The notes below the pieces were generated by a model. That model made no database searches and was not told the origin of the DNA. It worked only from the letters and a program-made list of their open reading frames with translations. Made by a program: the position numbers and the translations under genes. A DNA stretch of 64,000 bases from Bdellovibrionales bacterium (GTDB lineage: Bacteria > Bdellovibrionota > Bdellovibrionia > Bdellovibrionales > JAUICD01): contig OZ241865.1 of assembly GCA_965203275.1 (NCBI GenBank), positions 544,001 to 608,000 of the forward strand, read 5' to 3'. This document shows positions 3,211-63,800 of this stretch, one piece after another. Position 1 is the stretch's first letter. Each line of letters begins with the position of its first letter.

Positions 3211-3852
3211 TCACTCAAAATAAATCATGCCTCTGTTTCCCTAAAATTGAACTAGCCTCTGGCTACTTTTGGACAGTTAGCCCGACGGCTCTCGCCGTCG
3301 ATCAAAGGCTAACTGTCTCAAAAGCTTGTTCAATTTTAGGAAGGAGGATCTCTTCGTCTCTTAACACCATGTTAAGGAAAAAGTTCCTTCTTACACCTTG
3401 GGCGATGACCACGATGGCTTTCGCCTTTGACAAAATGGTCATTGCCTCAAAAGCCTGACCACTTTTAGTAGAAAGGATCCTTTCCTCTTTTAACACCATG
3501 TTAAGGGTTTGTTTCACTAAAAGTGGTCTATTTCACTCAAAGTGAACTGACCTCTGTTTCCCTAAAATTGAACTAGCCTCTGGCTACTTTTGGACAGTTA
3601 GCCCGACGGCTCTCGCCGTCGATCAAAGGCTAACTGTCTCAAAAGCTTGTTCAATTTTAGGAAGGAGGATCTCTTCGTCTCTTAACACCATGTTAAGGGT
3701 TTGTTTCACTAAAAGTAAACTAGCCTCTGGCTACTTTTGGACAATGACCGCAATGGCTTTCGCCATTGGCAAAATGGTCATTGTCTCAAAAGTCCGTTTA
3801 CTTTTAGTAGGGAGGATCTCTTTCTCTCTTAACACCATGTTAAGGAAAAAGT
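3211..3852. repeat. Cluster of family A structured repeats (about 3 complete arms plus partial arms)
   Basis: Tandem arms with different stem alleles (ctaaaattgaac, ctaaaagtaaac, ctaaaagtggtc, ctcaaagtgaac). Confidence 0.9.
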
Positions 3853-4024
3853 TCCTTTAGTTCCTATATTTTATATATATAAAGTTTTAAAAAGTCCGTC
3901 AAGAGATAATATTTCACCGTTGTCTTATCACTCAAAAGAGGTTTAAAGTTAGTTAATGAAAACATACAAAATGAAAAAATCATTAATAGAAAAACCTTCC
4001 AAAAGAAAAGCAAAACCTTCTATT

Positions 4025-5827
4025 TTATAAATAGGCATCTACGGGTAACCCAACAGACTTCATCACTTTAAGAGCATTTGTGGTTGTAGCTGCTCCTTTT
4101 TTGATCTGATAATCAAACATTAAAATATCATTTTGGGTATGATCTGTAAAATGCCAGTTTTCTAATCCTTTGATGGCTGAAGTCAATTCAATATCATGTG
4201 TTGTCACAAATCCTAAGCTTTTAGAGTTACAAAGGGCTTTGATTAAGGCCTGAGAACCTAGTAATCTTTCTCTACTGTTGGTACCTTTAAATATTTCATC
4301 GATTAAAAATAAAGAAGGCTGTTTTTTAGCTTCAGATAGCAAATTATGAATACGTACAACTTCTGAATAAAAGTAAGAGGAACCTTGCTGGAGAGAATCA
4401 GAAACCCGAATACATGTAAAGGTTTTGCCAATGAAGGTTTCAAAAGAATCAGCAAATACACTAGCTCCCATCAAAGCTAAAAGCTGATTGATACCTATAG
4501 TTCTTAGAAAAGTAGACTTGCCTGACATATTAGAACCTGTGATCAAAATGACGGGACTCTTATTAGAAATAAAAATAGAATTTTTTACTGCTTTGGATCG
4601 TTCAATCAAAGGGTGATAAGCATTTTTTGTTTTAATAGCCACATCTTTGGTAAATGTAGGAAGGGTTTTGGTTTGGAAATCATACAAAAAAACCAAAGAA
4701 ATTTGCACTTCTATTTGAGTCATAGCCTTTTTAATATCCTCATAAATACTGTTCAACTGAGATTTGGTTTTGATAAGCTTTTTGGCAAAAAAAGCATTCC
4801 AAGGTAAAAGAGAATTAATAATCACAAGCAACAGAGGGTTAGACTGTACACCCAGAAAACTAACCACACTTGAAATATTTGCAAAATACTTTTGTGGGTT
4901 ATGTTTGATGAGAGGCTGAGAGAGGTCAGACATGTCTTCTTTGTTTGCCTGAGCTATTTGATACATGCCATTAAAATAAGTCGATTGAAGTGGTAGATGT
5001 ATTTCTAGTGCTTGAGCATGAGAAAAAGCCCCTCCGTTATATTTAAGAGAAAACATAGAAAATAAAAAGAAAATTGTCCACGTGATAGCCAGGACACTTA
5101 AAGCAAAGGGGGTGCTTATAAAGCAGTACACCACCAAAGTGATGATAAAAGCTAAAAAGGCCATCCATAATCCTATTTCAAAAAGAAAAGGCCCGGAAAA
5201 GTCTTTTTTTGCTTTTAAAAGGTCTTCAAAGTCGGTTGTGTTTTCAAAAGTATTTTGTTCAGGAATTTGAGCTAATGTACGGACAAGCCACTTGATAAAT
5301 TGAGGTGTTAGCCTTTGCCATTTTTTTGTTCTAGCTTGTCTTTCAAGAATGGATTTTTGGGATAAATCTCCATTTAATAAAAGGTCTAAAAACTTTTGTT
5401 TGGAGTAATGCATGATCGTTTCATCTATCATGGTAAAGACAGACTGGGGACCTAAGAGATCAAGATCATCTGCTATGGTATTGACTTTTGCTTTTTTACG
5501 AGCATCGTTTTGATAAGTTCCTTTTTGGCGTAGGTGTTGCCGGCGATAAAATACTTGTGCATGTTCTAACTCTCGAATATGTTTTTTGAGACGTTGTGTT
5601 TTGACAACAGCATAAATAAAAGGAAAACCAAAGAGAATTAAGCTTGGCAGGCCCAAATGCCAGTCAGGGAAAAATGCTGACAACAACAAACCCAACATCA
5701 ACAAGCCAACCCATATCAATCTTATATTGAATGTTTTCTCTAGTTTATTGAGCTTTTTTTTGTAAATTTGATTTAATTTTTTATATTTTTTCCCGCAATC
5801 CATTGTCCATCCTTTTATGTATTTCAA
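4025..5827 (-). CDS. Membrane-anchored MutS-related ATPase
   Basis: TM segments N-terminally; GSNMSGKST Walker A, SYFYSE, LIDEIFKGTN and TTHD of the MutS domain V ATPase. Confidence 0.85.
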   Translation of the reverse strand: MKYIKGWTMDCGKKYKKLNQIYKKKLNKLEKTFNIRLIWVGLLMLGLLLSAFFPDWHLGLPSLILFGFPFIYAVVKTQRLKKHIRELEHAQVFYRRQHLRQKGTYQNDARKKAKVNTIADDLDLLGPQSVFTMIDETIMHYSKQKFLDLLLNGDLSQKSILERQARTKKWQRLTPQFIKWLVRTLAQIPEQNTFENTTDFEDLLKAKKDFSGPFLFEIGLWMAFLAFIITLVVYCFISTPFALSVLAITWTIFFLFSMFSLKYNGGAFSHAQALEIHLPLQSTYFNGMYQIAQANKEDMSDLSQPLIKHNPQKYFANISSVVSFLGVQSNPLLLVIINSLLPWNAFFAKKLIKTKSQLNSIYEDIKKAMTQIEVQISLVFLYDFQTKTLPTFTKDVAIKTKNAYHPLIERSKAVKNSIFISNKSPVILITGSNMSGKSTFLRTIGINQLLALMGASVFADSFETFIGKTFTCIRVSDSLQQGSSYFYSEVVRIHNLLSEAKKQPSLFLIDEIFKGTNSRERLLGSQALIKALCNSKSLGFVTTHDIELTSAIKGLENWHFTDHTQNDILMFDYQIKKGAATTTNALKVMKSVGLPVDAYL

Positions 5828-5945
5828 GTATTTTGTATCCTATTATAGTGATTGTCAAAGAATTTAAAACTTTTAATGATCATCTTAAGAATTTCAAAAT
5901 CAAAACGAGGACAGTCCACTATTTCAACACAAAAGCCTGTTAAAA

Positions 5946-7058
5946 TCAAATCAAGTCAAGTAGCATACGTCTGTGAAGCTCATTTTGTATTTTTAATTGC
6001 TCTAATTGCTCTGTCGAAAGCAAGATACTGCTATTTCCATTACTGTCAAAGTGATCAGAATCAAAATCAGAAAAAAAATAAGCACCTATCCCTATAGCTA
6101 CCATAAGTGGCAGTGTCTTTTTTAAAACTTGTGTCAGACGCGTGTTAAAGGGTGGATGCGTGTGGGATGAATCCAATGTTCCTTGCAGATAAACATTTCT
6201 GAGAGTATCTCCACGTAATATACCTCTTTTATAACTGATCTCTAAATCACTTTGATATGTATGAGGTTCACGGCCAGAGTGAGAACGATTGTATGTTATC
6301 TGTACTTCTCCTAATTCTTTCACCACATTGTCACTGTGATCATATAAGCCTGGAAATTCTAAAAACTCTCTGCTTTTGCTCACTTTGATACTTTTAACAT
6401 GAGAAACATTAAAAGTCTGATCTTGCATTTGAACAGTGAAACGATCATCCTTAGGATAATAAATAATTGTGCTATGGTGAGTTGGTAATCCTATGTCTTC
6501 TATATTCCTCCAATGGGGCCTTTTATTATTTTTAGTGATGGTGATCTCTGTGCCAGCAAGGGCTTCTTTTAATTCCTCAAATGGCTTTATAATATGCGGT
6601 TGATTTATAACTGCTGGTATCTCTCCAAGGCGTCGCAATCGACCTCTATGTACAATTTGAGTATCTAAGATATTATTTGATTGTTGTAGGTGATATAGAT
6701 AATAGGCTAGGTATGCTAAACTGTAATGAACAATATTAGCTGTTTGAACTCGGTGCATATTATTGTCAAGTTGTTCAGCTTGACTTAGGGCTTTGTCTAT
6801 AGCTTCTGTTTGTTCTAAGATGAGAGCAATTTCTTCTAAGCTCATAGCTTGATATAAAGGTTTGTCTCTTTCAAAAGATGTGACTGTTTCTGTTTGTTCT
6901 TCTGTCTTATTTTCATTTGCATTTGCATTTGTATTTGCATTGCAGAACCAATTGAAAAACCAACAGTGCAACTCTGATTGATTGTCAGAACTTGCTAATA
7001 TTTTATTAGAATTCAAAATAATTAAACAAATTGTCAAAATATTTATAAAAGTCTTCAT
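5946..7058 (-). CDS. Hypothetical exported protein
   Basis: 370-aa ORF with signal-peptide-like N-terminus and a near-C-terminal hydrophobic segment; consensus promoter upstream. Confidence 0.7.
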   Translation of the reverse strand: MKTFINILTICLIILNSNKILASSDNQSELHCWFFNWFCNANTNANANENKTEEQTETVTSFERDKPLYQAMSLEEIALILEQTEAIDKALSQAEQLDNNMHRVQTANIVHYSLAYLAYYLYHLQQSNNILDTQIVHRGRLRRLGEIPAVINQPHIIKPFEELKEALAGTEITITKNNKRPHWRNIEDIGLPTHHSTIIYYPKDDRFTVQMQDQTFNVSHVKSIKVSKSREFLEFPGLYDHSDNVVKELGEVQITYNRSHSGREPHTYQSDLEISYKRGILRGDTLRNVYLQGTLDSSHTHPPFNTRLTQVLKKTLPLMVAIGIGAYFFSDFDSDHFDSNGNSSILLSTEQLEQLKIQNELHRRMLLDLI

Positions 7059-7153
7059 TATTATATTCTTTTAAGCTTACTTTTTATTGTTGTTTATTTT
7101 ACTTTTATTTATTTTACTTTAAAGTCCTTTATTTCCCTTTAAAATCAATAACT

Positions 7154-7166
7154 CCCCCCCCCCCCC
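7154..7166. repeat. C13/G13 homopolymer in the 5' leader of ORF 5946..7058
   Basis: 13 consecutive C between promoter and start codon. Confidence 0.85.
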
Positions 7167-7178
7167 TCAAAAAAATAA

Positions 7179-7207
7179 ATTATAATCAGAGAAAGGCATA
7201 ATGTCAA
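7179..7207 (-). promoter_or_regulatory. Sigma70 consensus promoter
   Basis: Minus strand reads TTGACA-ttatgcctttctctgat(17 nt)-TATAAT. Confidence 0.8.
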
Positions 7208-7544
7208 GCCTATTTTGTATTTAAAGCATATTTTGTATTTTGAGATTCTCCTTATTTAAAATATAACACCCAAATTTGTCACTCTAAGGGACCTTTTTTG
7301 TTTGTTTTTTTCATCAAACAAAAACAATGCCAAAATAAATATCCTCAATATATCTTCATAGTGCGTTTAATTTTATTAGTGTTTTTAATGGTTTATTGGT
7401 TATATTTGAGGTTTTGCATCAGGGTTTATGCATAGGTATTAGAGATGGTATAGCTTTTGCTACTTTTAGTGGCAGGATGATTTTTATTTTTTTAACTGAT
7501 TGATGTTTGTTTTCAAGCATTGATTTTAATTTATGGAGGTAATT

Positions 7545-8096: not shown

Positions 8097-8110
8097 TCTT
8101 TAGAAGTCTT

Positions 8111-8480
8111 TTTCACTCAAAATGCATCATGCCTCTGGCATGTTTTTGGGCAATCAGCCCGACGGCTCACGCCGTCGATCAAAGGCTGATTGCCTCAAAA
8201 ATCTATGCATTTTGAGTAGAGGAGGATCCCTTCGTTTTTTAACAAGATGTTAAGGAAAAAGAGTTTTATTTTTTGAATAAAAAAAGATAAGCCCTTGAAG
8301 GCTTATCTTTTTTTTTCGTTCAAATGGGTTCACTGTTTCACTGTTTCACTAAAAGTGGTCTAGCCTCTGGCCACTTTCTGGCGATGACCACGATGGCTTT
8401 CGCCATCGATAAAATGGTCATCGCCCAAAAGCAACCAGAGGTTGGTTTACTTTTAGTGAAACAACTCATTTTGAGTGAAA
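8111..8480. repeat. Family A repeat arms flanking a terminator
   Basis: Complete arm 8111-8262; second arm from about 8345 plus inverted partial ends. Confidence 0.85.
8279..8316. terminator. Bidirectional rho-independent terminator
   Basis: aaaaaaagataagcc-cttgaa-ggcttatcttttttttt. Confidence 0.8.
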
Positions 8481-8660
8481 TGGATCATAAGGCAAAAGTC
8501 TAGGTTTTAAATAAAATTCAAGATTGATAAAAGTATTCAATATTTCTTGCCGATAAGAACTAATGAAAAGGTATTTAAAGTACTTTTTCCAGGATCCGGC
8601 AGTCCGGTATTAGGAGGTATTTATGACAACTATGACAACAACAAATTTCATTGAAAGGTT

Positions 8661-8710
<50 letters not shown>

Positions 8711-8869: not shown

Positions 8870-9470
8870 ATTTCACTCAAAATGCATCATGCCTCTGGCA
8901 TGTTTTTGGGCAATGACCGCAACGGCTTTCGCCATTGACAAAATAGTCATTGCCTCAAAAATCTATGCATTTTGAGTAGGGCGAATCTCCTTGCTTCTTG
9001 ACACCATGTTAGGGAAACAAGACATGCTTCTAAAATTTTTTGGAGAGCAAGCGGGTTGCAATAAAGGAACTTTTTCCTTAACATGATGTAAAGAGACGAG
9101 AAGATTCTTCCTACTCAAAGTGAACAGGCTTTCTAGGCGATGACCATTTTATCGATGGCGAAAGCCATCGTGGTCATCGCCAGAAAGTGACCAGAGGTCA
9201 GTTCACTTTGAGTGAAATGACGGCATTGCTCTTTTTAGACAGCGTAAGCTGTCAGAGCAAACGTCAGAAGGAAATCTTTTTCCTTAACATTGTGTTAAGA
9301 AATGAGGACATCCTCCTTCCTAAAATTGAACAGGCTTTTGAGACAGTTAGCCTTTGATCGACGGCGAGAGCCGTCGGGCTAACTGTCCAAAAGTAGCCAG
9401 AGGCTAGTTCAATTTTAGGGAAACAGAGGCATGATTTATTTTGAGTGAAACAAACCACTTTTAGTGAAAC
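8870..9470. repeat. Family A inverted doublet (8870-9217) plus further arms
   Basis: Forward arm, gagcaagcggg spacer, reverse arm; another reverse arm about 9280-9425. Confidence 0.9.
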
Positions 9471-13992: not shown

Positions 13993-14024
13993 AATATCTC
14001 TCCTTCTTTAAGTCTTTTAAGTTT

Positions 14025-14790
14025 GTTTCACTAAAAGTAAACTGACCTCTGTTTCCCTAAAATTGAACTAGCCTCTGGCTACTTTCTGGCAATGACCGCG
14101 TTTGTCTCACTAAAAATAAACCAGCCTCTGGCTGTTTTTGGGCAATCAGCCCGACGGCTCTCGCCGTCGATCAAAGGCTGATTGCCTCAAAAATCCGTTT
14201 ATTTTTAGTAGGAAGAATCCTCTTGTCTCTTTACACGATGTTAAGGAAACAAGATGTTTATTTCCCATTGACAAAATGGTCATTGCCTAGAAAGCTTGTT
14301 CAATTTTAGGAAGGAGGATCTCTTCCTTTTTTAACATGATGTTAAGGAAAAAGATTTCCTTCTGATGCCGGCTTGCCCGATTGCCGGATCCCAGATCCCG
14401 GAATGAACACTATGTTAAGGAAAAAGTTCCTTCCATGACCTATTATGCACAGATTACAAACGATTGCAAACGAAAACAACCCACATTGTAAAGGTTATAG
14501 AGTACTTTGTAAATTTTACATGGTTTTTTTCACTCAAAGTGAACTGGCCTCTGGCCACTTTTGGACAATGACCGCAAAGGCTTTCGCCTTTGACAAAATG
14601 GTCATTGTCTCAAAAGCCTGTTCACTTTGAGTAGGGAGGATCTCTTCGTTTCTTAACACAATGTTAAGGAAAAAGTTCATTCTTACACCTTTTGGCTGTC
14701 GCCGTCGATCAAAGGCTAACTGCCTCAAAAGCCTGTTCAATTTTAGGAAGGAGGATCTCCTCGTCTCTTTACAGCATGTTAAGGAAACAA
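14025..14790. repeat. Family A repeat cluster with nested arm and heptamer tail
   Basis: Outer stem cctaaaattgaac (14056) / gttcaattttagg (about 14298) encloses a complete inner arm. Confidence 0.88.
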
Positions 14791-23313: not shown

Positions 23314-24184
23314 ATTCAAATTTGATTTTTCCTGGGATCTGGGATCCGGGATCTGGCAACCCGGCATCAGATCACAGAAATGAACTTTTTCCTTAACATG
23401 AAGTAAAAAAATGAAGGGATCCTCCTTACTCAAAGTGAACAGGCTTTCTAGGTTGCCAGCATTTGAGAAGGCGATAGCCTTCGGCTGGCAACCAGAAAGT
23501 GGCCAGAGGCCAGTTCACTTTGAGTGAACCAACTAACTCCCTACTAAAAGTAAACGGACTTTTGAGGTAGCCAGCCTTTGATCGACGGCGGTAGCCGTCG
23601 GGCTGGCTACCCAAAAGTGACCAGAGGTCAGTTTACTTTTAGTGCAGATCAAATGAGGCAATGACCATTTTGCCAATGGCGAAAGCCATTGCGGTCATCG
23701 CCCAGGGTGTAAGAAGGAACTTTTTCCTTAACATGGGGTTTATCCGGGATCCGGGATCCGGCCACTGGCAACCCGGCAGGAGTGAAGCGAAAATCTTGTT
23801 TCCTTAACATTTCACTCAAAATGAGCCACACCGCTGGTGTGTTTTTTGGTGTTGCCTGCAAAGGCTTTCGCCTTTGACAAAATAGGCAACACCTAAAAAA
23901 TCCGCTCATTTTGAGTAGAGGAGGATCCTTTTATTCCTTTACAACATGTTAAGGAAAAAGTGTTTTTATTGTCTTAGGAGCAAGCGGGCTACGATAAAGA
24001 AACTTTTTCCTTAACATGGTGTTAAGAAATGAGGACATCCTTCTTCCTAAAATTGAACAAGCTTTCTAGGCAATGACCATTTTGCCAATGGCGAAAGCCA
24101 TTGCGGTCATTGCCAGAAAGTAGCCAGAGGCTAGTTCAATTTTAGGGAAACAGAGGCTAGACCACTTTTAGTGAACCAGAAGTG

Positions 24185-24685: not shown

Positions 24686-24954
24686 AATCTATTCCTTTAT
24701 TTTTAATACTTGTATTTTTAATACTTGCATTTATTAAACTTCTTAAACTTAATCCGAACCTTACAACATTTTGTAAAATATTTCAACCTAAATTTAAGTA
24801 TGTAATTTTTACATAAAAGTCCTTATAAATATTGTAAATATTCTCAGTTTAAATAGACCTTCGGCTCTAAGTAGGTTATAAATATTGATTTTTAAGCTAT
24901 TTAAAGATAATATTTTATAATAGAATTTAGTCAAGGATGAGGGGGAGATGATTA

Positions 24955-25728
24955 TCCGGGATCTGGGATCCGGGGGCTGGGATCCGGGACCTGGGATCCG
25001 GGGGCTGGGATCCGGGAACCGGGATCTGGGGGCTTGGGATCTGGGATCTGGCAACCCGGCAGACAGGCAAGGAAAAATCGTGTTAAGAGACAAAAGGATT
25101 ATCCCTAACCCCACCCACCACCCTTCAATTCTGCTTTTCCATTTGTATATTTTTTATGAGTGGAATGCGGGGTCAGGCTTCCGAAGTCCTCAATTTTTTT
25201 CACTCAAAATGAACTGGCCTCTGGCCACTTTCTGGTTGCCAGCCGAAGGCTATCGCCTTCTCAAATGCTGACAACCTAGAAAGCTTGTTCATTTTGAGTA
25301 GAGAAGGATCTCCTTGCTTCTGACACCATGTTAGGGAAAAAGTGCTTTTATTACATTAAAAGCAAGCGGGTTTACGAATGAAGTTACGAATGAAGTTCTT
25401 TTTCCTTAACATTGTGTTAAGAAATGAGGAGATCCTCCTTCCTAAAATTGAACAAGCTTTTGAGACAGTTAGCCTTTGATCGACGGCGAGAGCCGTCGGG
25501 CTAACTGTCCAAAAGTAGCCAGCAGTGATAAAGGAGCTTTTTCCTTAACATGGTGTTAAAAGAGGAAAGGATCCTTCCTACTCAAAGTGAACAGGCTTTC
25601 TAGGCGATGACCATTTTACCGATGGCGAAAGCCATCGTGGTCATCGCCAGAAAGTGGCCAGAGGCCAGTTCACTTTGAGTGAAACAGAGGCTAGTTCAAT
25701 TTTAGGGAACCAGACCACTTTTAGTGAA
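24955..25728. repeat. Heptamer array, family B fragment and family A doublet with nested arm
   Basis: (GGGATCY)n at 24955-25060; arms 25199-25728. Confidence 0.9.
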
Positions 25729-28506: not shown

Positions 28507-29279
28507 TCAACATCTCACTAAAAATAAACCAGCCTCTGGCTACTTTTGGGCATTGGCTCACTAAAAGTGGTCTAGCCTCTGGCTACTTTCTGGCAATGAC
28601 CGCAATGGCTTTCGCCATTGGCAAAATGGTCATTGCCTAGAAAGCTTGACCACTTTTAGTAGGGAGGATCCCTTCGTCCCTTAACTCCATGTTAAGGAGT
28701 TGTTTCACTAAAAGTGGTCTAGCCTCTGGCTACTTTCTGGCGATGACCACGATGGCTTTCGCCATCGATAAAATGTTCATCGCCTAGAAAGCCTGACCAC
28801 TTTTAGTAGGAGGATCCTTTCCTCTTTTAACATCATGTTAAGGAAACAAAATGCTTTCAAAATTATATTAAAAGAGCAATGCCTCAAAAATCCGTTTATT
28901 TTTAGTAGGAAGAATCCTTTTGTCTCTTTACACGATGTTAAGGAAACAGTTCCTTCTGATCCCGGGTTGCCGGTTGCCGGATCCCGGATCCCGGATTGAC
29001 ACGATGTTAAGGAAACAGTTCTTTCTTACACCTTTTGGCTGTCGCCGTCGATCAAAGGCTGAGTTGTTTCACTCAAAGTGAACTGACCTCTGGTCACTTT
29101 TGGACAATGACCGCAAAGGCTTTCGCCTTTGACAAAATGGTCATTGTCTCAAAAGCCTGTTCACTTTGAGTAGAGAGGATCCTTTTTTCTCTTAACACCA
29201 TGTTAAGGAAAAAGAGTTCTTTCTGATCCCGGGTTGCCGGATGCCAGATCCCGGATCCCGGAAAAGATCAAATTTGACT

Positions 29280-29763: not shown

Positions 29764-30413
29764 TATTACGATCAATGCTTTAGGACCTGATGCCAGATTG
29801 TTTCACTAAAAGTGGTCTAGCCTCTGGCATGTTTTCTGGCAGTTAGCCCGACGGCTCTTGCCGTCGATCAAAGGCTGAGTTGTTTCACTCAAAGTGAACT
29901 GACCTCTGGTCACTTTTGGACAATGACCGCAAAGGCTTTCGCCTTTGACAAAATGGTCATTGTCTCAAAAGCCTGTTCACTTTGAGTAGAGAGGATCCTT
30001 TTTTCTCTTAACACCATGTTAAGGAAAAAGAGTTCTTTCTGATCCCTGACTGCCGGATCCCGGGTTGTTTCACTAAAAGTGGTCTAGCCTCTGGCTACTT
30101 TCTGGCGATGACCACGATGGCTTTCGCCATCGATAAAATGGTCATCGCCTAGAAAGCCTGACCACTTTTAGTAATGAGGATCTCTTCGTCTCTTGACCAC
30201 ATGTTAAGGAAACAAAATGCCTTTTCTGCCTGATGCCGGGTTGCCGGATCCCAGATCCCGGAGGGAAAATCAAATCAAAAATCAACTCACAAACCATGTA
30301 AATTATTCATATAAACCCTTGCAAAGAACATATTTTTTACAAACGTGTTTTTCTACTTGACATCGTGTTCTTCTTGCTTGCTATAAAGAAGCAAATATAG
30401 TATAGCCTTCCTT

Positions 30414-32554: not shown

Positions 32555-32972
32555 CCGGGATCTGGGATCCGGCAACCCGGCATCAGATGAAACTCTTTTT
32601 CCTTAACATTTCACTAAAAGTGGTCTAGCCTCTGGCTACTTTCTGGCAATGACCGCAATGGCTTTCGCCATTGGCAAAATGGTCATTGCCTAGAAAGCTT
32701 GACCACTTTTAGTAGAGAAGGATCCCTTTATTCCTTTACAGCATGTTAAGGAAAAATTCTTTTATTGCCTCAAGAGCAAGCGACTTACGATAAAGGAACT
32801 TTTTCCTTAACATCGTGTTAAAAAATGAGGACATCCTCCTTCCTAAAATTGAACAAGCTTTTGAGACAGTTAGCCTTTGATCGACGGCGAGAGCCGTCGT
32901 GCTAACTGTCCAAAAGTAGCCAGAGGCTAGTTCAATTTTAGGGAAACAGAGGTTGGTTTACTTTTAGTGAGC
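32555..32972. repeat. Heptamer tail plus family A inverted doublet
   Basis: Forward arm from 32609, gagcaagc spacer at 32774, reverse arm to 32947. Confidence 0.9.
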
Positions 32973-32979
32973 CAAAGCC

Positions 32980-41873: not shown

Positions 41874-42416
41874 TCATACGGGCTTTTCTTTATCTTTAGT
41901 ATGTTCTTTTTTCACCTCTTTATCTTTGTCTTTATTGACTATAAGTCCATACAATGTGTCGAACTTTCGATCAAACTTATCTTCCATAATTTCGAATCTT
42001 CGATCAAACTTATCTTCCATGGTGTCAAATTTTCGATTAAACTTCTCTTCTATGGTGTTGAACTTTCGATCAAACTTATCTTCCATGGCTTTCATCTGTG
42101 TAGGTATATGATTGTATACCTGCTCCTGAATAGGTTCCATTTTAGCATCTATATATTCCTTTAAATGCTTTTCTGATTGATTTATTCGCTCATTTAAGTT
42201 CTTTTCTGATTGGTTTACCAATTCCCTTAAGTTATTTTCTGATTTGTTTACCATTTCCTTTAAGCTATTTACCAACTCCTTTAAGTTCTTTTCTGATTGG
42301 TTGATCCGTTCATTAAAAGAATTTGTCACTTTAGTATAAAAAAAATATCCTATACCAAACATAGCTAAGATGGTCATTGCATCTAGCTGATTAAGTGTTT
42401 CAATGAAAGCTTCCAT
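41874..42416 (-). CDS. Membrane-anchored hendecad coiled-coil protein, array copy 5
   Basis: N-terminal TM, 11-aa repeats, EQVYNHIPTQ core. Confidence 0.8.
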   Translation of the reverse strand: MEAFIETLNQLDAMTILAMFGIGYFFYTKVTNSFNERINQSEKNLKELVNSLKEMVNKSENNLRELVNQSEKNLNERINQSEKHLKEYIDAKMEPIQEQVYNHIPTQMKAMEDKFDRKFNTIEEKFNRKFDTMEDKFDRRFEIMEDKFDRKFDTLYGLIVNKDKDKEVKKEHTKDKEKPV

Positions 42417-42567
42417 AATATCATCCTTGGTGATACCATCACCCGATTAATATAAAAAAACAAAGCATTTAAACAGTACATCATCATACAACATAATCTA
42501 AGGCCCGTCTAGCAACAAACACTGGAAACATACTATGAGGGTTAAGGTTTCCAATCAATGTGGATGA

Positions 42568-43131
42568 TCATAAGGGCTTTTCTTTATCTTTAGTATGTTC
42601 TTTTTTCACCTCTTTATCTTTGTCTTTATTGACTATAAGTCCATACAATGTGTCGAATTTTCGATCAAACTTATCTTCCATGGTGTCAAACTTTCGATTA
42701 AACTTCTCTTCTATGGTGTTGAATTTTTGATCAAACTTATTGTCCATGGCTTTCATCTGTGTAGGTATATGATTGTTTACTTGCTCTTGAATAGGTTCAA
42801 TTTTAGCATCTATATATTGCTTTAAATTATTTTCTGATTTGCTTACCAATTCCCTTAAATTATTTTCTGATTTGCTTACCTGTTCCCTTAAGCTGTTTAC
42901 CAATTCCCTTAAGTTATTTTCTGATTGGTTTACCAATTCCCTTAAATTATTTTCTGATTGGTTTACCAATTCCCTTAAGTTATTTTCTGACTGGTTGATC
43001 CGTTCATTAAAAGATCTAGTTGCCCTGTCATAAAACTTAAAGCCAATAATAAAGCCAATAATAGATAGGCTTATAATTGTCATTAGGTCTGTAGTTTTAA
43101 GTATTTCTAAAACAAATTCATAGAACCCCAT
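42568..43131 (-). CDS. Coiled-coil array copy 4 (divergent N-terminus)
   Basis: Same core; different first 39 aa; AGGAGG RBS. Confidence 0.8.
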   Translation of the reverse strand: MGFYEFVLEILKTTDLMTIISLSIIGFIIGFKFYDRATRSFNERINQSENNLRELVNQSENNLRELVNQSENNLRELVNSLREQVSKSENNLRELVSKSENNLKQYIDAKIEPIQEQVNNHIPTQMKAMDNKFDQKFNTIEEKFNRKFDTMEDKFDRKFDTLYGLIVNKDKDKEVKKEHTKDKEKPL

Positions 43132-43282
43132 AATATCCTCCTTAGTGATACCATCACCCGATTAATATAAAAAAACAAAGCATTTAAACAGTACATCATC
43201 ATACAACATAATCTAAGGCCCGTCTAACAACAAACACTGGAAACATACTATGAGGGTTAAGGTTTCCAATCAATGTGGATGA

Positions 43283-43789
43283 TCATAAGGGCTTGTCTTT
43301 TTTAGTATGTTCTTTTTTCACCTCTTTATCTTTGTCTTTATTGACTATAAGTCCATACAATGTGTCGAATTTTCGATCAAACTTATCTTCCATAATTTCG
43401 AATCTTCGATCAAACTTATCCTCCATGGTGTCAAACTTTCGATTAAACTTCTCTTCTATGGTGTTGAACTTTCGATCAAACTTATCTTCCATGGCTTTCA
43501 TCTGTGTAGGTATATGATTGTATACCTGCTCTTGAATAGGTTCCATTTTAGCATCTATATATTCCTTTAAGTGCTTTTCTGATTGGTTTATTCGCTCATT
43601 TAAGTTCTTTTCTGATTGGTTTATTCGCTCATTTAAGCTATTTACCAATTCCTTTAAGTTATTTTCTGATTGGTTGATTCGTTCATTAAAAGAATTTGTC
43701 ACTTTAGTATAAAAAAAATATCCTATACCAAACATAGCTAAGATGGTCATTGCATCTAGCTGATTAAGTATTTCAATGAAAGCTTCCAT
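43283..43789 (-). CDS. Coiled-coil array copy 3
   Basis: Paralog with AGGAGG RBS. Confidence 0.8.
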   Translation of the reverse strand: MEAFIEILNQLDAMTILAMFGIGYFFYTKVTNSFNERINQSENNLKELVNSLNERINQSEKNLNERINQSEKHLKEYIDAKMEPIQEQVYNHIPTQMKAMEDKFDRKFNTIEEKFNRKFDTMEDKFDRRFEIMEDKFDRKFDTLYGLIVNKDKDKEVKKEHTKKDKPL

Positions 43790-43939
43790 AATATCCTCCT
43801 TGGCTATACATCACCTGATTAATATAAAAAAACAAAGCATTTAAACAGTACATCATCATACAACATAATCTAAGGCCCGTCTAACAACAAACACTGGAAA
43901 CATACTATGAGGGTTAAGGTTTCCAATCAATGTGGATGA

Positions 43940-44413
43940 TCATAAGGGCTTTTCTTTTTTAGTATGTTCTTTTTTCATCTCTTTATCTTTGTCTTTATTG
44001 ACTATAAGTCCATACAATGTGTCGAATTTTCGATCGAACTTATCTTCCATAATTTCGAATTTTCGATCAAACTTATCCTCCATGGTTTTCATCTGTGTAG
44101 GTATATGATTGTTTACTTGCTCTTGAATAGGTTCAATTTTAGCATCTATATATTCCTTTAAGTGCTTTTCTGATTGGTTTATTCGCTCATTTAAGCTATT
44201 TACCAATTCCCTTAAGTTATTCTCTGATTTGCTTACCAATTCCCTTAAATTATTTTCTGATTTGTTTACTAATTCCTTTAAGTTATTTTCTGATTGGTTG
44301 ATTCGTTCATTAAAAGCATTTGTGATTTTAGTATAAAAAAAATATCCTATACCAAACATAGCTAAGATGGTCATTGCATCTAGCTGATTAAGTATTTCAA
44401 TGAAAGCTTCCAT
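43940..44413 (-). CDS. Coiled-coil array copy 2
   Basis: Paralog with AGGAGG RBS. Confidence 0.8.
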   Translation of the reverse strand: MEAFIEILNQLDAMTILAMFGIGYFFYTKITNAFNERINQSENNLKELVNKSENNLRELVSKSENNLRELVNSLNERINQSEKHLKEYIDAKIEPIQEQVNNHIPTQMKTMEDKFDRKFEIMEDKFDRKFDTLYGLIVNKDKDKEMKKEHTKKEKPL

Positions 44414-44564
44414 AATGTCCTCCTTAGTGATACCATCACCCGATTAATATAAAAAAACAAAGCATTTAAACAGTACATCATTATACAACATAATCTAAGG
44501 CCCGTCTAACAACAAACACTGGAAACATACTATGAGGGTTAAGGTTTCCAATCAATGTGGATGA

Positions 44565-45044
44565 TCATACGGGCTTTTCTTTTTTAGTATGTTCTTTTTT
44601 CATCTCTTTGCCCTTTTCTTTGCCTTTATCGACTATGAGTCCATACAATGTATCGAACTTTCGATCAAGCTTATCCTCCATAGCTTTCATCTGTGTAGGT
44701 ATATGATTGTATACTTGCTCTTGAATAGGTTCAATTTTAGCATCTATATATTCCTTTAAGTGCTTTTCTGATTGGTTTATTCGCTCATTTAAGCTATTTA
44801 CCAATTCCCTTAAGTTATTCTCTGATTTGCTTACCAATTCCCTTAAGTTATTTTCTGATTTGTTTACCAATTCCCTTAAATTATGTTCTGATTTGTTTAC
44901 TAATTCCTTTAAGTTATTTTCTGATTGGTTGATTCGTTCATTAAAAGAATTTGTCACTTTAGTATAAAAAAAATATCCTATACCAAACATAGCTAAGATG
45001 GTCATTGCATCTAGCTGATTAAGTATTTCAATGAAAGCTTCCAT
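44565..45044 (-). CDS. Coiled-coil array copy 1
   Basis: Paralog with AGGAGG RBS. Confidence 0.8.
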   Translation of the reverse strand: MEAFIEILNQLDAMTILAMFGIGYFFYTKVTNSFNERINQSENNLKELVNKSEHNLRELVNKSENNLRELVSKSENNLRELVNSLNERINQSEKHLKEYIDAKIEPIQEQVYNHIPTQMKAMEDKLDRKFDTLYGLIVDKGKEKGKEMKKEHTKKEKPV

Positions 45045-57653: not shown

Positions 57654-60600
57654 CTATTCGTTACATTCATTTGAAGGCAAATGGGGAACGGAACAATTAA
57701 TTCGCCCTCTATTCTGTCCATGACAGGTCCATTCACATCTCCATGTGTGTGGACCATCTTCCATGCAAGCAGGACTGGAATTACGTCGTCCAACAGTGCA
57801 GGCGCCACAGGTACTGCCACATTGTCCAGGGACGGGGTCGCCTCGGACCCAGCATCCATTTTGTTGTTTACATGTATCATTACCAGAGACACTGGTACAG
57901 CTGGATTCATCGTTGTATTGTCCAGTGCCAGTGCAAGTTTCAGGGCGATTAGGTTTTGCTTTGGCACATGAAACTGAGGTTCCACCAAGTACACAAGACC
58001 ATTTATACTCAGTGGCTGTGTCAGCTACTGGACGGAGTGTACCTCTATGACAAGCATCTTCTTGAGCATTATTACAAGCTGGAGATTGTGGATTAGAAGG
58101 TGGATCAGGATCAGCAGGTGGATTCACATTTTGACTAGGTAGAGAAGTTCTATAACAGCAATGTCTACCAGAGTTCACTTGGAGTTCCCATATATCTCTT
58201 TTTGTTAGGCCAGGAGGCACGACATCTTTCCAACCACCAGGTCCAGTTCCATATCTGTCTAAATCTTCACATTTTGTATCATATGAAGTTGCAATCAAAC
58301 CTTTTGATGGATCTGGATTTGAATCTAATGGTCCATGGCCTAAACGGCAACTACGACCGTTGTTCGACCAAAGACTATTTCCTAACCGCTCCATCATTAG
58401 ATTACAAGAATATCCACAAGATGGATAACACCTTCCACCCACATCTTTAACATGACAATTATATCGATTAGAATCATGACACCCTACTGATTCTGCACAA
58501 TAAGACCCTGTACATCCTCCTCTTCTTTTGCTACAGGCTCCATGGGGATTAGGTTCATTAGGGTCAGGAGTTGCATTAGGATCAGGAGTTGCATTAGGGT
58601 CAGGAATAGGATCAGGGGTTGGAGTGTAACCACAAGCGGGTCGTAGTCTACATCTTTGCTGTGAGTCATTATCTATTTTACGACGCTTGTTTTTAGTACA
58701 ACCACCACTTGTATAAGGTTGACAATGTCCTTTGAATGGCACACTAAGTGTCTTTCTTTTAGCTCTACATTTAGTTTCATCCTGGTTCACTTTCAGTACC
58801 CACCTTACATGTTGGCTTCCAGGAATATTTTCACAAACTCCTGAGCTTGCTCTTGTAGATTCAGGCTCAGAACTCTGCCATTCATTAGGTACACCATCCT
58901 TTAGTCTACATTTATATTTATGCTTTACACCCAAGGCATCTGTATATTGACAGTCATCTGATGGGCCGTCCGTACTATCAAGTCGCCATTTTGTAGCACA
59001 ACTTGCCTCAACATCACAACTTTTTCCTATAGTCTCATTATTATCGGTGAGATAATATTTACCCTTATCGTTCTCAATAGTCGATTTAGCGTGTGTACCG
59101 CTCATATAATTATTTTTACAGATAGCTTCTCTATTAAAACTACATTTGTTTGCATCACCAGAACCTGCACGCTTACCTCTACAACGAGAGGGATTATAAT
59201 CTGTTCTTGTCCGTTGTGTTGGAGTTTGTGATTTTCCTTTGCAGGGAAGTAGATATTCGCATTTATTTAAACCTAGTGGTGGACAGCTAGATAGTGTTTC
59301 ATCGTTCCTAGTCTGTCTGCCTCCTTTAGGATTGGTGCAATGCCTTGTGTTGGGTACACCACATTGTTCATTATTTACTCCATTACAAGTACCTGCATTA
59401 CGATCACAACAAGCAAGGTGAGATTCACACTTCACATATTTACAACTATGACCATCTCCAAGCCCAAGTATAGGTGTAGTTGGATGTGGTACAAACACAC
59501 TCCATTGTGTTGGCTTAACACTTGAAGTGCCTCCACAAATATGGTAATATTTAACTCCTACATATCTAGGATTACAGCCATCATGTTCATTTGAAGAACC
59601 TGGTGCTGTTAGGTTACATTCGATGGGAGAACCATTGCCGTCTTTTCTGGTCCTTACACATTGGCTTTGATGACAATCTACAGAATAATGTTTTGGGAAT
59701 TTACCTGCTGTTGAGTTGGTTGGTACAATTGTATTAATAGTATATTGTGTCTTATCACTATTCTTAAACCAATAAGTACTATTTGGAAAGTTTTGAGCTG
59801 CAAATGTACTTGGAAGGTCTGTATCCCATACAAGAGGGTTACCAGAACCACTTCCACAGACATCCTTAGGGATGGTGGTTACTGTTTGTCGACCATGTTG
59901 AATTCCGCTCAAAGTACCCTTACAAACCGGTGGACTTGTCGTTCTGTCAATCGTCATGCTAATGGAGCTACTTGTATTAGTGGTGCCACTACCATCCCTT
60001 CGACGACCTGACTTTGTGCAAGGTTCTAAATTATGAGTAAATTGATCTGTGACTTTGCCTGTAAAGGAGACATTATTTTGATTGCACTGTATACCAGTGA
60101 TATACAAAACATTCAAACTTCTTCCACTATGACTCACACGAGTGAAAGGCAATTTCCAACGAGTATTTGGACCTGAGTAATTCCTTCCCTTAACCCCATC
60201 ACTGATTGAACCTACATCGTCCTCATCACTATTGAGAGCTACAGTTGATGTGGGTCTTTTAGAATCTATATAAAAACGACTATTAACAATCTGACGTGGA
60301 TTTGTTACGCCCAACTGTGAGGCTTCTATAACCTCTAGCTCATACCTTCTATTAGATGGTAAACTATTGAACTTTAATCGCAACTTGATATCATTACCAC
60401 TGCTATCTAAAAATGTACTGCTTGTACTGCCTGGTTGTCCCGGAAATTTCACTTGATGACACTTCTGCCAAGGACCTCTTGTAAAAGTACAACTTGTCCC
60501 TGAATAGGCAGCTGTGCTATCACCACTTAGACAACCCCTGATCCCCCGGCATAACAAGACTGTTCCAAACTCTTTTGACCTGCTCTGAGGAAACTTCAAA

Positions 60601-61865
60601 TCCATAATAATATTTTTGTAATTAGAGCCATCTGTATTACACGAAGTTTGTTTGCGTGAACTCAGCAGTAAGTCCTTATTATGACCATTTTTAAGGGAGG
60701 TGACTTCTACACTGACAGGAGTCTGATTCCCTTCTACAAGCATTCTAGTTTGATGAGAAAATCTTTGCATTGCATTGCAAGAATAACTCTGGCTTTCTTT
60801 TTCATATTTTAACTTAACTGTCACCTGAAATCCTAAGTCAGGATTACCTATGGTACTTAAACCTGAATTACTGCTTTTGATTCTATTTTTAAAAGCTATA
60901 CTTGGATTCTGTGATAGAGAAAGCCTAGGGTGAGTCAGTATTAACTTATGCGTCGGGTGAGTAGATGAATGTGGACAAGTCACAGGTGTTGATACAAACT
61001 CACTGCCGACATACTTTGTCTCTTTACATTCAATATTTGCATAACTCTCTATGACTTTTTGGTTTTTAAGATCAACAGGATTAATCCTAATGTAGAATTT
61101 TACGTTTTGAAGATTGTACTTTTTAAGATAGTCCTTCCATAAAGAAGCTATCCTTCCATCACTTGTTGTGGTGCTACTGGTAATGGTAAAGTCTTTACCT
61201 TTTTCGTCTTCGTCCTGTTCCTCTTCATCAAAAAATTCATGGTCAGAGTTATATAAAAATTGTAGAAAATTAACAGCATTCAGCAACAAGACAGATGTAC
61301 CTGTTTGAACAGAAGAACCAGCATTTACTTTCACCAAATCCACTCCTGTATTGATAAATTGAGATGGAGGGTTGCTATTGATTAATTCTCTGTATAATTT
61401 TGTATACAGCGTTGGAGTATTTAAGCTAGTACCTGAACTGATATCTTGGATTTGATATTCAGCTGGATTTGTGCTGGCAATTTGAGTGCCTTTTTTAATA
61501 AGCAGTGGATTATAATCATAGCCAGCTTTGTATCCATAAAGACGAGTCCCTAATGAGACCACCCTATCTAAACCTGATTGGGCAATGCTTTGACAATCTG
61601 AATCTTGTGCAGATGAACGCATCACTGTTTGACTTTGTGTGAAGTAATATGCTGTGCCTACACTGATTAAGGCAAGCATGGTCATCACAATCAACATCTC
61701 TACTAAGCCCATTCCTAGCTCTGGCTGTTTGCATTTTTTAAAATGATTTTTTTTAAGACAATGAAAACCTGGACTTAAGGGGGGGGGGGGGGGGGGTAGG
61801 CTAATTGCGTTATGCAATTTTTTTGCAGAAGTGTTTGTACAAATATTTGTACAAATGAAAAACAA
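57654..61865 (-). CDS. Giant Cys-rich protein with prepilin-like N-terminal motif
   Basis: G|MGLVEMLIVMTMLALISVG resembles a type IV prepilin cleavage/methylation site; many Cys modules; Pro/Asp linkers; C18 tract near the start. Confidence 0.7.
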   Translation of the reverse strand: MFFICTNICTNTSAKKLHNAISLPPPPPPLSPGFHCLKKNHFKKCKQPELGMGLVEMLIVMTMLALISVGTAYYFTQSQTVMRSSAQDSDCQSIAQSGLDRVVSLGTRLYGYKAGYDYNPLLIKKGTQIASTNPAEYQIQDISSGTSLNTPTLYTKLYRELINSNPPSQFINTGVDLVKVNAGSSVQTGTSVLLLNAVNFLQFLYNSDHEFFDEEEQDEDEKGKDFTITSSTTTSDGRIASLWKDYLKKYNLQNVKFYIRINPVDLKNQKVIESYANIECKETKYVGSEFVSTPVTCPHSSTHPTHKLILTHPRLSLSQNPSIAFKNRIKSSNSGLSTIGNPDLGFQVTVKLKYEKESQSYSCNAMQRFSHQTRMLVEGNQTPVSVEVTSLKNGHNKDLLLSSRKQTSCNTDGSNYKNIIMDLKFPQSRSKEFGTVLLCRGIRGCLSGDSTAAYSGTSCTFTRGPWQKCHQVKFPGQPGSTSSTFLDSSGNDIKLRLKFNSLPSNRRYELEVIEASQLGVTNPRQIVNSRFYIDSKRPTSTVALNSDEDDVGSISDGVKGRNYSGPNTRWKLPFTRVSHSGRSLNVLYITGIQCNQNNVSFTGKVTDQFTHNLEPCTKSGRRRDGSGTTNTSSSISMTIDRTTSPPVCKGTLSGIQHGRQTVTTIPKDVCGSGSGNPLVWDTDLPSTFAAQNFPNSTYWFKNSDKTQYTINTIVPTNSTAGKFPKHYSVDCHQSQCVRTRKDGNGSPIECNLTAPGSSNEHDGCNPRYVGVKYYHICGGTSSVKPTQWSVFVPHPTTPILGLGDGHSCKYVKCESHLACCDRNAGTCNGVNNEQCGVPNTRHCTNPKGGRQTRNDETLSSCPPLGLNKCEYLLPCKGKSQTPTQRTRTDYNPSRCRGKRAGSGDANKCSFNREAICKNNYMSGTHAKSTIENDKGKYYLTDNNETIGKSCDVEASCATKWRLDSTDGPSDDCQYTDALGVKHKYKCRLKDGVPNEWQSSEPESTRASSGVCENIPGSQHVRWVLKVNQDETKCRAKRKTLSVPFKGHCQPYTSGGCTKNKRRKIDNDSQQRCRLRPACGYTPTPDPIPDPNATPDPNATPDPNEPNPHGACSKRRGGCTGSYCAESVGCHDSNRYNCHVKDVGGRCYPSCGYSCNLMMERLGNSLWSNNGRSCRLGHGPLDSNPDPSKGLIATSYDTKCEDLDRYGTGPGGWKDVVPPGLTKRDIWELQVNSGRHCCYRTSLPSQNVNPPADPDPPSNPQSPACNNAQEDACHRGTLRPVADTATEYKWSCVLGGTSVSCAKAKPNRPETCTGTGQYNDESSCTSVSGNDTCKQQNGCWVRGDPVPGQCGSTCGACTVGRRNSSPACMEDGPHTWRCEWTCHGQNRGRINCSVPHLPSNECNE

Positions 61866-62026
61866 AACCGAACTAAATAAATAATTTTTTTGTATATATA
61901 AATCATAACTGAACCCTTAAACTTATTATAAACGACTTATCGACAATTCAACGAAAAAAGTAAAAAATATATAATTTTTTTAAGATTTTGTATCAATATA
62001 ATACACATCGACTGTGAAATACCCAG

Positions 62027-63800
62027 AATCCGGGATCCGGGATCCGGGATCCGGGATCTGGGATCTGGGATCCGGGATCTGGGATCTGGGATCTGGGATC
62101 CGGGATCCGGCATCAGTTCCCGGTATGCCAGATTGCCGGATCCCAGATCCCGGATCATGGGAGTGAATATAAAGTCTTGTTTCCTTAACATGGTGTTAAA
62201 AAATGAGGACATCCTCCTTCCTAAAATTGAACAAGCTTTTGAGGCAGTTAGCCTTTGATCGACGGCGGTAGCCGTCGGGCTAACTGCCCAAAAGTAGCCA
62301 GAGGCTAGTTCAATTTTAGGGAAACAGAGGTCAGACCACTTTTAGTGAAACAAATCCTTCAGTCTCCCACTGCCCCATCCTCTCCCTAATTATTTTTTGT
62401 TTGATGGTTACGCAGAATCTAAAAAAAATAAAAAAACAAAAAAAAAGAACTTTTTCCCTAACATGGTGTTAAGAGAAAAAAGGATCCTTCCCTACTCAAA
62501 ATAAATGGATTTTCTAGGCAGTTAGCCTTTGATCAACGGCGATAAGCCGTTGGGCTAACTGCCAGAAAACATGCCAGAGGCATGATGCATTTTGAGTGAA
62601 ACAAACCCTTAACATGGTGTTAAAAAATGAGGAGATCCTCCCTACTAAAAGTGGTCAGGCTTTCTAGGTTGCCAGCATTTGAGAAGGCGATAGCCTTCGG
62701 CTGGCAACCAGAAAGTGACCAGAGGTCAGACCACTTTTAGTGAAACAAATCCTTCAGTCTCCCACTGCCCCATCCTCTCCCTAATTATTTTTTGTTTGAT
62801 GGTTACGCAGAATCTAAAAAAAATAAAAAAACAAAAAAAAAGAACTTTTTCCCTAACATGGTGTTAAGAGAAAAAAGGATCCTTCCCTACTCAAAATAAA
62901 TGGATTTTCTAGGCAGTTAGCCTTTGATCAACGGCGATAAGCCGTTGGGCTAACTGCCAGAAAACATGCCAGAGGCATGATGCATTTTGAGTGAAACAAA
63001 CCCTTAACATGGTGTTAAAAAATGAGGAGATCCTCCCTACTAAAAGTGGTCAGGCTTTCTAGGTTGCCAGCATTTGAGAAGGCGATAGCCTTCGGCTGGC
63101 AACCAGAAAGTGACCAGAGGTCAGACCACTTTTAGTGAAACAAATCCTTCAGTCTCCCACTGCCCCATCCTCTCCCTAATTATTTTTTGTTTGATGGTTA
63201 CGCAGAATCTAAAAAAAATAAAAAAACAAAAAAAAAGAACTTTTTCCCTAACATGGTGTTAAGAGAAAAAAGGATCCTTCCCTACTCAAAATAAATGGAT
63301 TTTCTAGGCAGTTAGCCTTTGATCAACGGCGATAAGCCGTTGGGCTAACTGCCAGAAAACATGCCAGAGGCATGATGCATTTTGAGTGAAACAAACCCTT
63401 AACATGTTGTTAAAAAACGAGGAGATCCTTCCCTACTAAAAGTGGTCAGGCTTTCTAGGTTGCCAGCATTTGAGAAGGCGATAGCCTTCGGCTGGCAACC
63501 AGAAAGTGACCAGAGGTCAGACCACTTTTAGTGAAACAGAGGCCAGTTCACTTTGAGTGAACGAGAGCCTTCGGCTGGCAACCAGAAAGTGACCAGAGGT
63601 CAGACCACTTTTAGTGAAACAGCTTAGCCTTTGATCGACGGCGGTAGCCGTCGGGCTAACTGCCAGAAAACATGCCAGAGGCATGATGCATTTTGAGTGA
63701 AAAAAAATGAGGACTTCGGAAGCCTGCACCCGCATTCCACTCATATAACAAAAATGAAAAAGCAGAATCGAAGGGCGGGGGGTGGGGTTAGGGATTATCC
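62027..63800. repeat. Heptamer array plus family A/B cluster with a 395-bp unit tandemly triplicated
   Basis: (GGGATCY) about x11 at 62027-62110; tttagtgaaacaaatcc at 62341, 62736 and 63131. Confidence 0.92.

Follow-up and report, generated by a model that had tools for sequence, protein, structure and literature searches.

The window analysed here is a 64,000-nt stretch of a Bdellovibrionales genome (contig OZ241865.1, positions 544,001 to 608,000; G000:C1:544001-608000), a single-contig genome of 2,567,810 bp with 35% G+C. It contains many copies of a non-coding, three-armed hairpin repeat with a unit length of about 160 nt, and the subject of this report is the joint at which one copy of this repeat runs into the start of another. 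An nhmmer model of 164 positions, built from 344 full copies, matches the genome 1593 times; the 1396 non-overlapping matches cover 164,413 bp, or 6.4% of the genome. Searches of the 64-kb window with Rfam models returned no match at the gathering score. Folded as single-stranded DNA (ssDNA), a single copy reaches −47.5 kcal/mol (z = −11.3), and the common fold combines a 13-bp outer stem (P1) with a small hairpin whose stem has 5–6 bp and whose loop is TCT, a long inner hairpin and two hairpins in the tail; compensatory changes are present at 23 of 54 predicted pairs among 12 hand-picked window copies. The element starts with (T)GTTTC[A/C]C at a 5′ end that is sharper than the 3′ end, where alignments stop in several modes between positions 143 and 160, as the first-pass annotation had noticed in describing a fixed GAAAC end opposite a variable one. 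The sequence upstream of the 5′ end holds little information beyond T/T, and the reverse complement of the tail has about 10–11 of 13 bases in common with the 5′ end (by eye). One subfamily that recurs below, subfamily d, is defined by GTTTCCCTAAAATTGAAC-TAGCC.

Copies are joined to one another at the sequence CCTCTGTTTC (CCTCT/GTTTC, the slash marking the point of joining), which occurs nine times in the window against 0.10 expected, a count that none of 100 shuffles reached. The nine sites, at 3230, 3551 and 14046 on the forward strand and at 9420, 24147, 25681, 32943, 62321 and 63533 on the reverse strand, are exactly those for which a recurring cctct/gtttc junction had been annotated, and genome-wide the sequence is found 65 + 79 = 144 times. 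CCTCT is the 3′ end of the 5′ arm of the small hairpin plus its loop, and the joint falls between the last T of the loop and the first G of the 3′ arm (CCTCT/GG), at the 3′ edge of the TCT loop; it links the loop edge of one copy to the first bases at the 5′ end of another. In every case listed, the sequence upstream of the joint is the first ~27 nt of another copy, referred to below as a stub. A P1 5′ half is followed by CCTCT in 1066 places. In 899 of them GG comes next, marking the intact hairpin except for GGTTCA (19) and GGCTCA (3), and the other continuations are mostly new element 5′ ends, GTTTCA (63) and GTTTCC (59), the remaining ones listed occurring 1 to 12 times each. No inverted insert or inverted tail follows CCTCT among these listed continuations, and the joint is strictly same-strand and same-orientation.

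Viewed from the 973 intact 5′ ends in the genome, 143 have CCTC(T) as their left flank and 267 have a stub of another copy within 41 nt upstream. These stubs end at model positions 27–30 in 203 cases, at position 20 in 27 and at positions 43–44 in 18, and the interior alignment ends of other fragments likewise cluster at a few positions; the objection that breakpoints are spread uniformly along the unit therefore fails. The joint looks like a defined cleavage or priming end, a part of the earlier interpretation that we keep, and more than 140 joinings, with many different partners, use this strand-specific point, which is precise to the single nucleotide. A sister species (G001, lipoamide dehydrogenase 76% identical) has 14 such joints, built from its own repeat variants, against none for a reversed-pattern control, and no such joint occurs in a further genome with few repeat copies (G004).

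The partners at these joints are highly varied. Among 143 joints, 30 stub variants and 21 insert variants occur in 81 combinations, compared with 94.4 ± 2.9 predicted under independence (minimum 84 in 2000 permutations), and their upstream flanks form 103 clusters, of which 89 contain a single joint and two others have 17 and 6 members. With so many stub-by-insert combinations in about a hundred flanks, the joints are not one duplicated composite, and the nine joints in the window likewise all differ in stub or flank. Subfamily d is prominent as the incoming partner: CCTCT lies upstream of 46 of its 69 copies, across at least 10 stub types, and 15 stub types are found among its 39 full-length inserts, whose similarity is 0.909 within a stub type and 0.890 between types (reached by 57 of 1000 permutations). 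The arm variants CATGCC, CACACC and CAGCC show the opposite use, each serving as a stub 9–17 times and as an insert only 0–2 times. Considering all full-length inserts, the nearest neighbour carries the same stub type in 19 of 109 cases, where 7.4 are expected. Judging from these counts, some composites have been copied, and most joints appear to be separate events.

The first-pass annotation described the joints as arms inserting into each other, which holds for a minority of them. The upstream copy is usually an orphan stub of 27 nt, and P1 5′ halves outnumber 3′ halves genome-wide (1297 vs 1000) by about the number of stubs. Only one of the nine window joints (25686) is followed by a matching outer P1 3′ half; genome-wide, a partner for the 12-nt P1 half of the stub lies within 330 nt downstream at 31 of 143 joints, compared with 19.5 ± 3.7 for shuffled stubs, and the host resumes exactly at position 28 after the insert tail in about three cases. 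A same-strand partial unit starting at positions 33–46 follows within 45 nt after 42 of 109 joint units, compared with 50 of 628 others, and its P1 matches the stub in 16 of the 42. On this evidence a few dozen joints are nests that have lost 5–18 nt of the host, the stub being an orphan in the rest, and the term insertion describes only a minority. The insert's own P1 halves match in 90 of 109 cases and the stub is matched instead in only 3, which argues that the missing host halves were not lost by crossover within the unit body. The far end of the added unit varies among a few recurrent forms. One of them can be explained by an exact insertion (row 759662) that then lost 12 nt between two GGCA repeats.

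The same loop is also a point of exchange between variants. Of 920 small hairpins having both arms, 82 have arms that are not complementary, and 44 of these are clean chimeras that combine two standard arm variants differing in type; the P1 halves of these chimeras match in 15 cases, compared with 598 of 838 normal hairpins. Some of the 44 differ by one base and could be point mutations, which TGACC/GGCTA (7 cases) and similar ones cannot. A break at the loop thus apparently has two outcomes: a mosaic copy when it is rejoined to a different variant at the homologous position, and the joint when it is connected to another copy's first base. Crossover at this loop offers an explanation for the mosaic copies.

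Other recurrent points of joining occur in the unit. Nest sites recur at GACCGC/G in the inner stem (GACCGCG/TTTG, 13 times genome-wide) and at GGGCAT/T. A second class of joint in the same small hairpin, with about 40 members, has a stub ending in GCC followed by GTC or GTT and a 5′ end with altered first bases, for example TAGCCGTCATTTTCAC. Two further joints recur: TCCTTAAC/ATTTCAC, which links an inverted tail to a head in about 70 cases, and the tandem AAGGGTTT/GTTTC, with 40. At sites in DNA other than the repeat, no target duplication is present in four filled/empty paralogous pairs compared with the repeat masked, and 11–19 nt of the target are replaced. The paralogous comparison yielded no clean nested pair among its few pairs, which showed replacement or wholly different intergenic DNA.

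The joints, nests and chimera of the window are collected in the table. The outer arm that the first-pass annotation saw as cleanly split at 25421–25710 is a real nest, and the matching outer P1 halves that it gave for the nests at 14056–14311 and 28513–28907 can be read directly from the sequence. The loop chimera at 29806–29835 is the one clear example in the window (at 29825); hairpins ending at 8368 and 28537 have arms one base short of complementary, and since the difference is a single base, point mutation is possible there.

Table. Joints, nests and a loop chimera of the hairpin repeat in the window (positions within the window; a slash in a motif marks the break).
Feature	Position	Strand	Details
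Orphan 5′ stub	3206..3234	+	Model 1–27; P1 variant ACTCAAAATAAAT; arm CATGCC; ends in CCTCT; stub ttatcactcaaaataaatcatgcctct; outer P1 3′ half without a match within 330 nt (closest: 5 mismatches)
Full-length subfamily-d unit	3235..3400	+	GTTTCCCTAAAATTGAAC-TAGCC; joined to stub 3206–3234
5′-truncated unit	3401–3530	+	Starts near model position 36; P1 3′ half unlike the stub
Second stub and subfamily-d unit	3527..3700	+	Stub 3527–3555; unit 3556–3700, tail cut at TTAAGG
Tandem unit	3702–3850	+	Follows unit 3556–3700
Stub and subfamily-d unit	9268..9452	-	Stub 9425–9452; unit ~9268–9424; joint 9420–9429
Stub and split subfamily-d unit	14023..14355	+	Stub 14023–14050; unit 14051–14355, split in the inner stem (GACCGC/G) by unit 14100–14262; 13 host nt lost; outer P1 halves match
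Stub and subfamily-d unit	23995..24178	-	Stub 24152–24178; joint 24147–24156
Only clean nest in the window	25421..25710	-	Subfamily-d host split after CCTCT by complete subfamily-c unit 25523–25685 (host tagcctct, insert, then (gct)ggctac); host resumes at GGCTAC after ...atcactgct; CT on both sides, fits a 2-nt CT duplication; outer P1 halves match 12/12 (0 mismatches, +233)
Interrupted host unit	28513..28910	+	P1 halves ACTAAAAATAAAC and GTTTATTTTTAGT; interrupted near model position 43 (GGGCAT/T) by two tandem units, 28554–28700 and 28701–28850
Loop chimera	29806..29835	+	5′ arm TAGCC and, beyond the TCT, 3′ arm GGCAT from a different variant
Stub and subfamily-d unit	32790..32975	-	Stub 32948–32975; joint 32943–32952
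Stub and subfamily-d unit	62170..62352	-	Stub 62326–62352; joint 62321–62330
Stub and unit	63395..63565	-	Stub 63538–63565; unit P1 ACTAAAAGTGGTC, tail cut TTAAGG; joint 63533–63542

Several other repeated sequences accompany these copies. A 395-bp block at window 62325–63414 stands in three tandem copies that are 100% identical and each carry repeat units, an arrangement that, by this identity, is a very recent segmental event. Tandem 7-nt repeats (GGGATCY / CCGGATC) adjoin element tails at many sites (24926–25058, 62000–62160, 28960–29000, 29220–29260 and 30225–30260) and look like a further mosaic module. A second palindromic repeat family, of the form ...GGCTTCCGAAGTCCTCA-stem-loop-stem-TGCGGAAGATCTTCAGCC..., occurs at genome positions 124,8xx, 254,1xx, 788,7xx and 1,708,5xx among others and in the window near 25160–25200; in several of its copies the 160-nt repeat sits within the hairpin and replaces 11–15 nt. 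IS256-like copies with 8-bp duplications lie inside repeat units at genome 432,217–433,617 and 626,473–627,873, one in the inner hairpin and one exactly at a GCC/GTC-type stub-to-unit joint. The window also encodes, at 41874–45044, five to six tandem paralogous open reading frames (ORFs) of 157–187 aa with an internal 33-nt periodicity, from a coiled-coil family. Large paralogous families in the genome, namely 79 ankyrin-repeat, 31 pilin-like (N_methyl), 31 + 16 coiled-coil and about 34 Rpn-like ORFs, fit a host-associated lifestyle.

Repeat copies of this genome and of the sister species share 73–83% DNA identity, while two orthologous proteins are 53% and 76% identical. The repeat DNA is better conserved than expected for unconstrained DNA, which suggests that the fold is under constraint, that conserved masters go on being copied, or that lineages exchange copies. 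The protein with 53% identity is the MltA-like neighbour of the nest at 25421–25710, and the region upstream of it in the sister species has no repeat copy, so the two species are too diverged for site-level comparison.

We tentatively read this joint, with its fixed position and strand, its recurrence with many partners, its orphan stubs and the loop chimeras beside it, as the mark of a strand-specific break-and-join and not of ordinary nested transposition; the cut itself, its chemistry and the enzyme are presumed in what follows. The repeat would fold, most likely as ssDNA, into the P1-closed three-armed structure, and its first small hairpin (5-bp stem, TCT loop) would be cut, or stalled, between the last T of the loop and the first G. 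The 3′-OH at CCTCT would then either be ligated to the start of another copy (T/GTTTC) or be extended from there, giving a 5′ stub (1–27) with a complete unit after it. What lies on the 3′ side in the broken copy would usually be lost, sometimes be kept after a gap of 5–18 nt and rarely be kept exactly, and the far end of the added unit would not be fixed. Breaks at the same loop would also be rejoined to other variants at the homologous position, producing mosaic copies. Such a process would match the cleave-and-rejoin model of RAYTs and BIMEs, or a one-ended replicative event primed from a nick. The enzyme-directed self-targeting proposed in the first-pass annotation survives in that the joint is site-specific on both partners, in one orientation, with many partners and in a second species, and does not in that the supposed host is mostly an orphan stub; its observations are thus partly confirmed and its interpretation partly supported.

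Several results weigh against this reading. Six-frame searches of the genome gave no match to the Y1 HUH domain (PF01797; control positive in 6 of 14 genomes), to IS110 or to a reverse transcriptase (RVT_1), and the genome has only two tyrosine recombinases; a Y2 search also gave no match, with a control that was silent too, and is therefore uninformative. Twenty multi-copy families were scanned in this genome of about 1800 ORFs. Their only DNA enzymes are an IS256-like transposase, a short resolvase, a methylase, a DDE_Tnp_1 and Rpn-like PD-(D/E)XK proteins, and the IS256-like transposase was rejected as a mobiliser, its ends being unrelated to the repeat and its duplications 8 bp long. CCTCT stands left of only 143 of 973 copies, and orientations of 295+/316− and 161+/201− in the two chromosome arms reveal no bias, with a weak GC skew and a poorly defined origin and terminus. 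The replacement, not duplication, of 11–19 nt in other DNA suits repair or template switching too, and some joints were copied as composites, as the shared-stub neighbours and the flank clusters of 17 and 6 indicate. Logan contigs from 13 of 14 public runs, which hold the stretch or part of it, break at every repeat and are therefore uninformative; no filled/empty allele pair or circle was seen in them, and apparent joints with sides of 20–45 nt are cross-mapping among repeats. The first-pass annotation had named HUH ssDNA transposition and target-primed reverse transcription as parallels; neither has support from gene content, and we assign the repeat to neither because their defining genes were searched for and not found.

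The Rpn-like PD-(D/E)XK genes are the only lead for a nuclease that would make the cut. About 34 such ORFs are present (PDDEXK_2 ~20, Transposase_31 ~14), with GMEK-type short repeats. PDDEXK_2 is found 14 times in this genome (G000), 5 times in G001 and once in G004, and is absent from G002 and G003, which is the pattern of the repeat itself (the domain is present in all 3 repeat-positive genomes of the family and in neither of the 2 negative ones); it also occurs in four more distant genomes in which the repeat was not found. Another relative rich in PDDEXK_2, G022, has 14 copies. With only five related genomes, this co-occurrence is a lead and not a test. Rpn proteins are described in part of one source as antiphage toxins (PMC10400941). 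Other candidates were rejected. No other insertion sequence (IS) with the ends of the repeat is present among the multi-copy families scanned, and the single Y1 gene of the sister species is IS200-like, with its own flanking hairpins and no repeat copy beside it. A match to "Cas12f1-like TNB", considered as a TnpB, belongs to a Cas12a-like gene of 1325 aa (genome C1:238,802–242,779; only the TNB zinc ribbon matched in Pfam) beside a CRISPR array that lies downstream, from ~245,287 onward, with a 62-nt period containing ATTTCTACTGTTGTAGAT. Multi-copy small proteins of 167, 315 and 346 aa, considered as hidden nucleases, look like secreted or repeat proteins, and rolling-circle multimers were set aside as tandem units differ in variant and so are not copies of one circle.

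A close rival, possible if somewhat unlikely, dispenses with a dedicated enzyme and has host-driven template switching or break repair act at the hairpin. After a replication stall or a cut by a structure nuclease, the free ...CCTCT 3′ end would anneal by short homology and be extended; on a template containing CCTCT/GTTTC the downstream unit would be copied in, as in homing-like biased gene conversion, and on an intact template a mosaic would result. Chimeras at the homologous position of the loop are what such copying predicts, and the lack of a transposase with matching ends, the replacement without duplication at sites in other DNA, the association of 3′ junction classes with the middle-domain type of the resumed host (by eye) and the derivation of one 3′ junction class (iii) from exact insertion by loss between GGCA repeats all agree with it. 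It accounts less well for a partner that always starts at exactly the first bases of the element, for homology of only about 5 nt at the joint across 30 stub types, and for one subfamily taking 46 of 143 joints; intact hairpins, moreover, outnumber joints as templates by about 6:1, yet joints are about three times commoner than chimeras. An unlikely extension of the break-and-join account has a structure-specific nuclease nick the loop edge and a complete copy added head-first to any copy; as the joint destroys the loop, joined copies would be immune and the joint would spread like a homing element. The recurrence could also be inheritance, a few ancient joints having spread as composites or segmental duplications, for which the shortfall of combinations below independence, the shared-stub neighbours, the flank clusters of 17 and 6 and the 395-bp triplication that carries copies in the window all speak. 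We regard this as quite unlikely, given that most flank clusters are singletons, that subfamily-d inserts, found with 15 stub types, resemble each other no more behind one stub type than across types, and that no two of the nine window joints agree in both stub and flank.

Two remaining explanations invoke transposition of other kinds. Classical double-strand transposition of a MITE (a miniature transposable element bounded by inverted repeats) whose two ends have TGTTTCC.TAA as short terminal inverted repeats and which duplicates 2 bp (CT), aimed at the hairpin and followed by frequent host 3′ deletions, would explain CT on both sides of 25523–25685 and the resemblance between the 5′ end and the tail reverse complement, and is nevertheless improbable: the joints all share one orientation, no autonomous element bounded by such ends turned up (those of the IS256-like element differ), non-repeat sites are not duplicated, and only about three exact resumptions occur. 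Target-primed reverse transcription from a nick at CCTCT, of an RNA ending in ...GUGAAAC, would give one fixed and one variable end; with no RVT_1 match in this single-contig genome and no Rfam family in the window, it is highly improbable.

Multiplication of bacterial intergenic palindromes is understood for RAYT-associated REPINs only, and here a repeat of this size fills 6% of a small genome without a detectable HUH enzyme. The folded 30-nt hairpin with its TCT loop provides a concrete, testable substrate for seeking the responsible activity. If the loop-edge nick with head-first addition of complete copies were true, non-coding DNA in bacteria would have a new means of multiplying that needs no transposase of any known class.

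Rolling-circle elements (IS91/ISCR, Helitrons) have one fixed end, a variable far end with flank, no target duplication, a subterminal hairpin and nested landings, and the present repeat resembles them in all these traits; it differs in that no Y2/Rep was detected (with the Y2 control silent) and in being non-coding and 160 nt long. In group I intron and intein homing by double-strand-break repair, the interrupted allele is immune and converts uninterrupted alleles, and the insertion point is exact. The exact insertion point is a likeness to the present case, as immunity and conversion would be; here, by contrast, the insert holds no endonuclease gene, the "alleles" are dispersed copies and most events lose the downstream half. 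Of the traits of DDE-type MITEs, a fixed-length duplication is absent from the pairs compared, an autonomous partner with the same ends was not found among the multi-copy families scanned, and the inverted repeat, read by eye, is partial. In the IS200/IS605 family each copy retains the target tetra- or pentanucleotide next to it, and the lagging-strand template is favoured. Here, CCTCT adjoins 143 of 973 copies and not essentially every left end, no strand bias is seen between arms set by a weak GC skew, and TnpA was not found. Joining in this genome is nonetheless strand-specific and without target duplication, as in Y1 HUH systems, judging from the continuations listed and the four filled/empty pairs; with IS200/IS605 and PATEs the repeat shares one active strand, insertion 3′ of a short target, absence of duplication and hairpins near the ends, as covered in part by PMC3333891. 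Parts of two further sources describe IS1397 and ISPpu9/IS110-type elements, mobile elements aimed at a palindromic repeat (PMC1525189; PMC12288879); these are coding insertion sequences entering foreign repeats, whereas the present repeat targets its own family and no IS110 was found. The REP/BIME/REPIN palindromes with their RAYTs differ in unit (a 20–40-nt hairpin or REP doublet, against ~160 nt and three arms here), in their GTAG-like foot motif, no conserved counterpart of which could be tied to cleavage here, in their enzyme, this genome having no Y1 match, and in the place of the break, which here lies in a loop. According to parts of the literature on them, TnpA-REP cleaves at several sites and exchanges strands (PMC3333891), and REP, BIME and REPIN sequences are hyper-abundant intergenic palindromes, mosaic, with breakpoints recombined in many combinations (PMC3333891; PMC3116915; PMC2817692). 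The present repeat shares with them these properties, a strand-specific logic, the absence of target duplication and a fold that is conserved while stems vary, and, like BIMEs, it is built of modules that recombine into many arrangements at discrete points, as seen in its clustered breakpoints, stubs, chimeras and recurrent neighbour classes.

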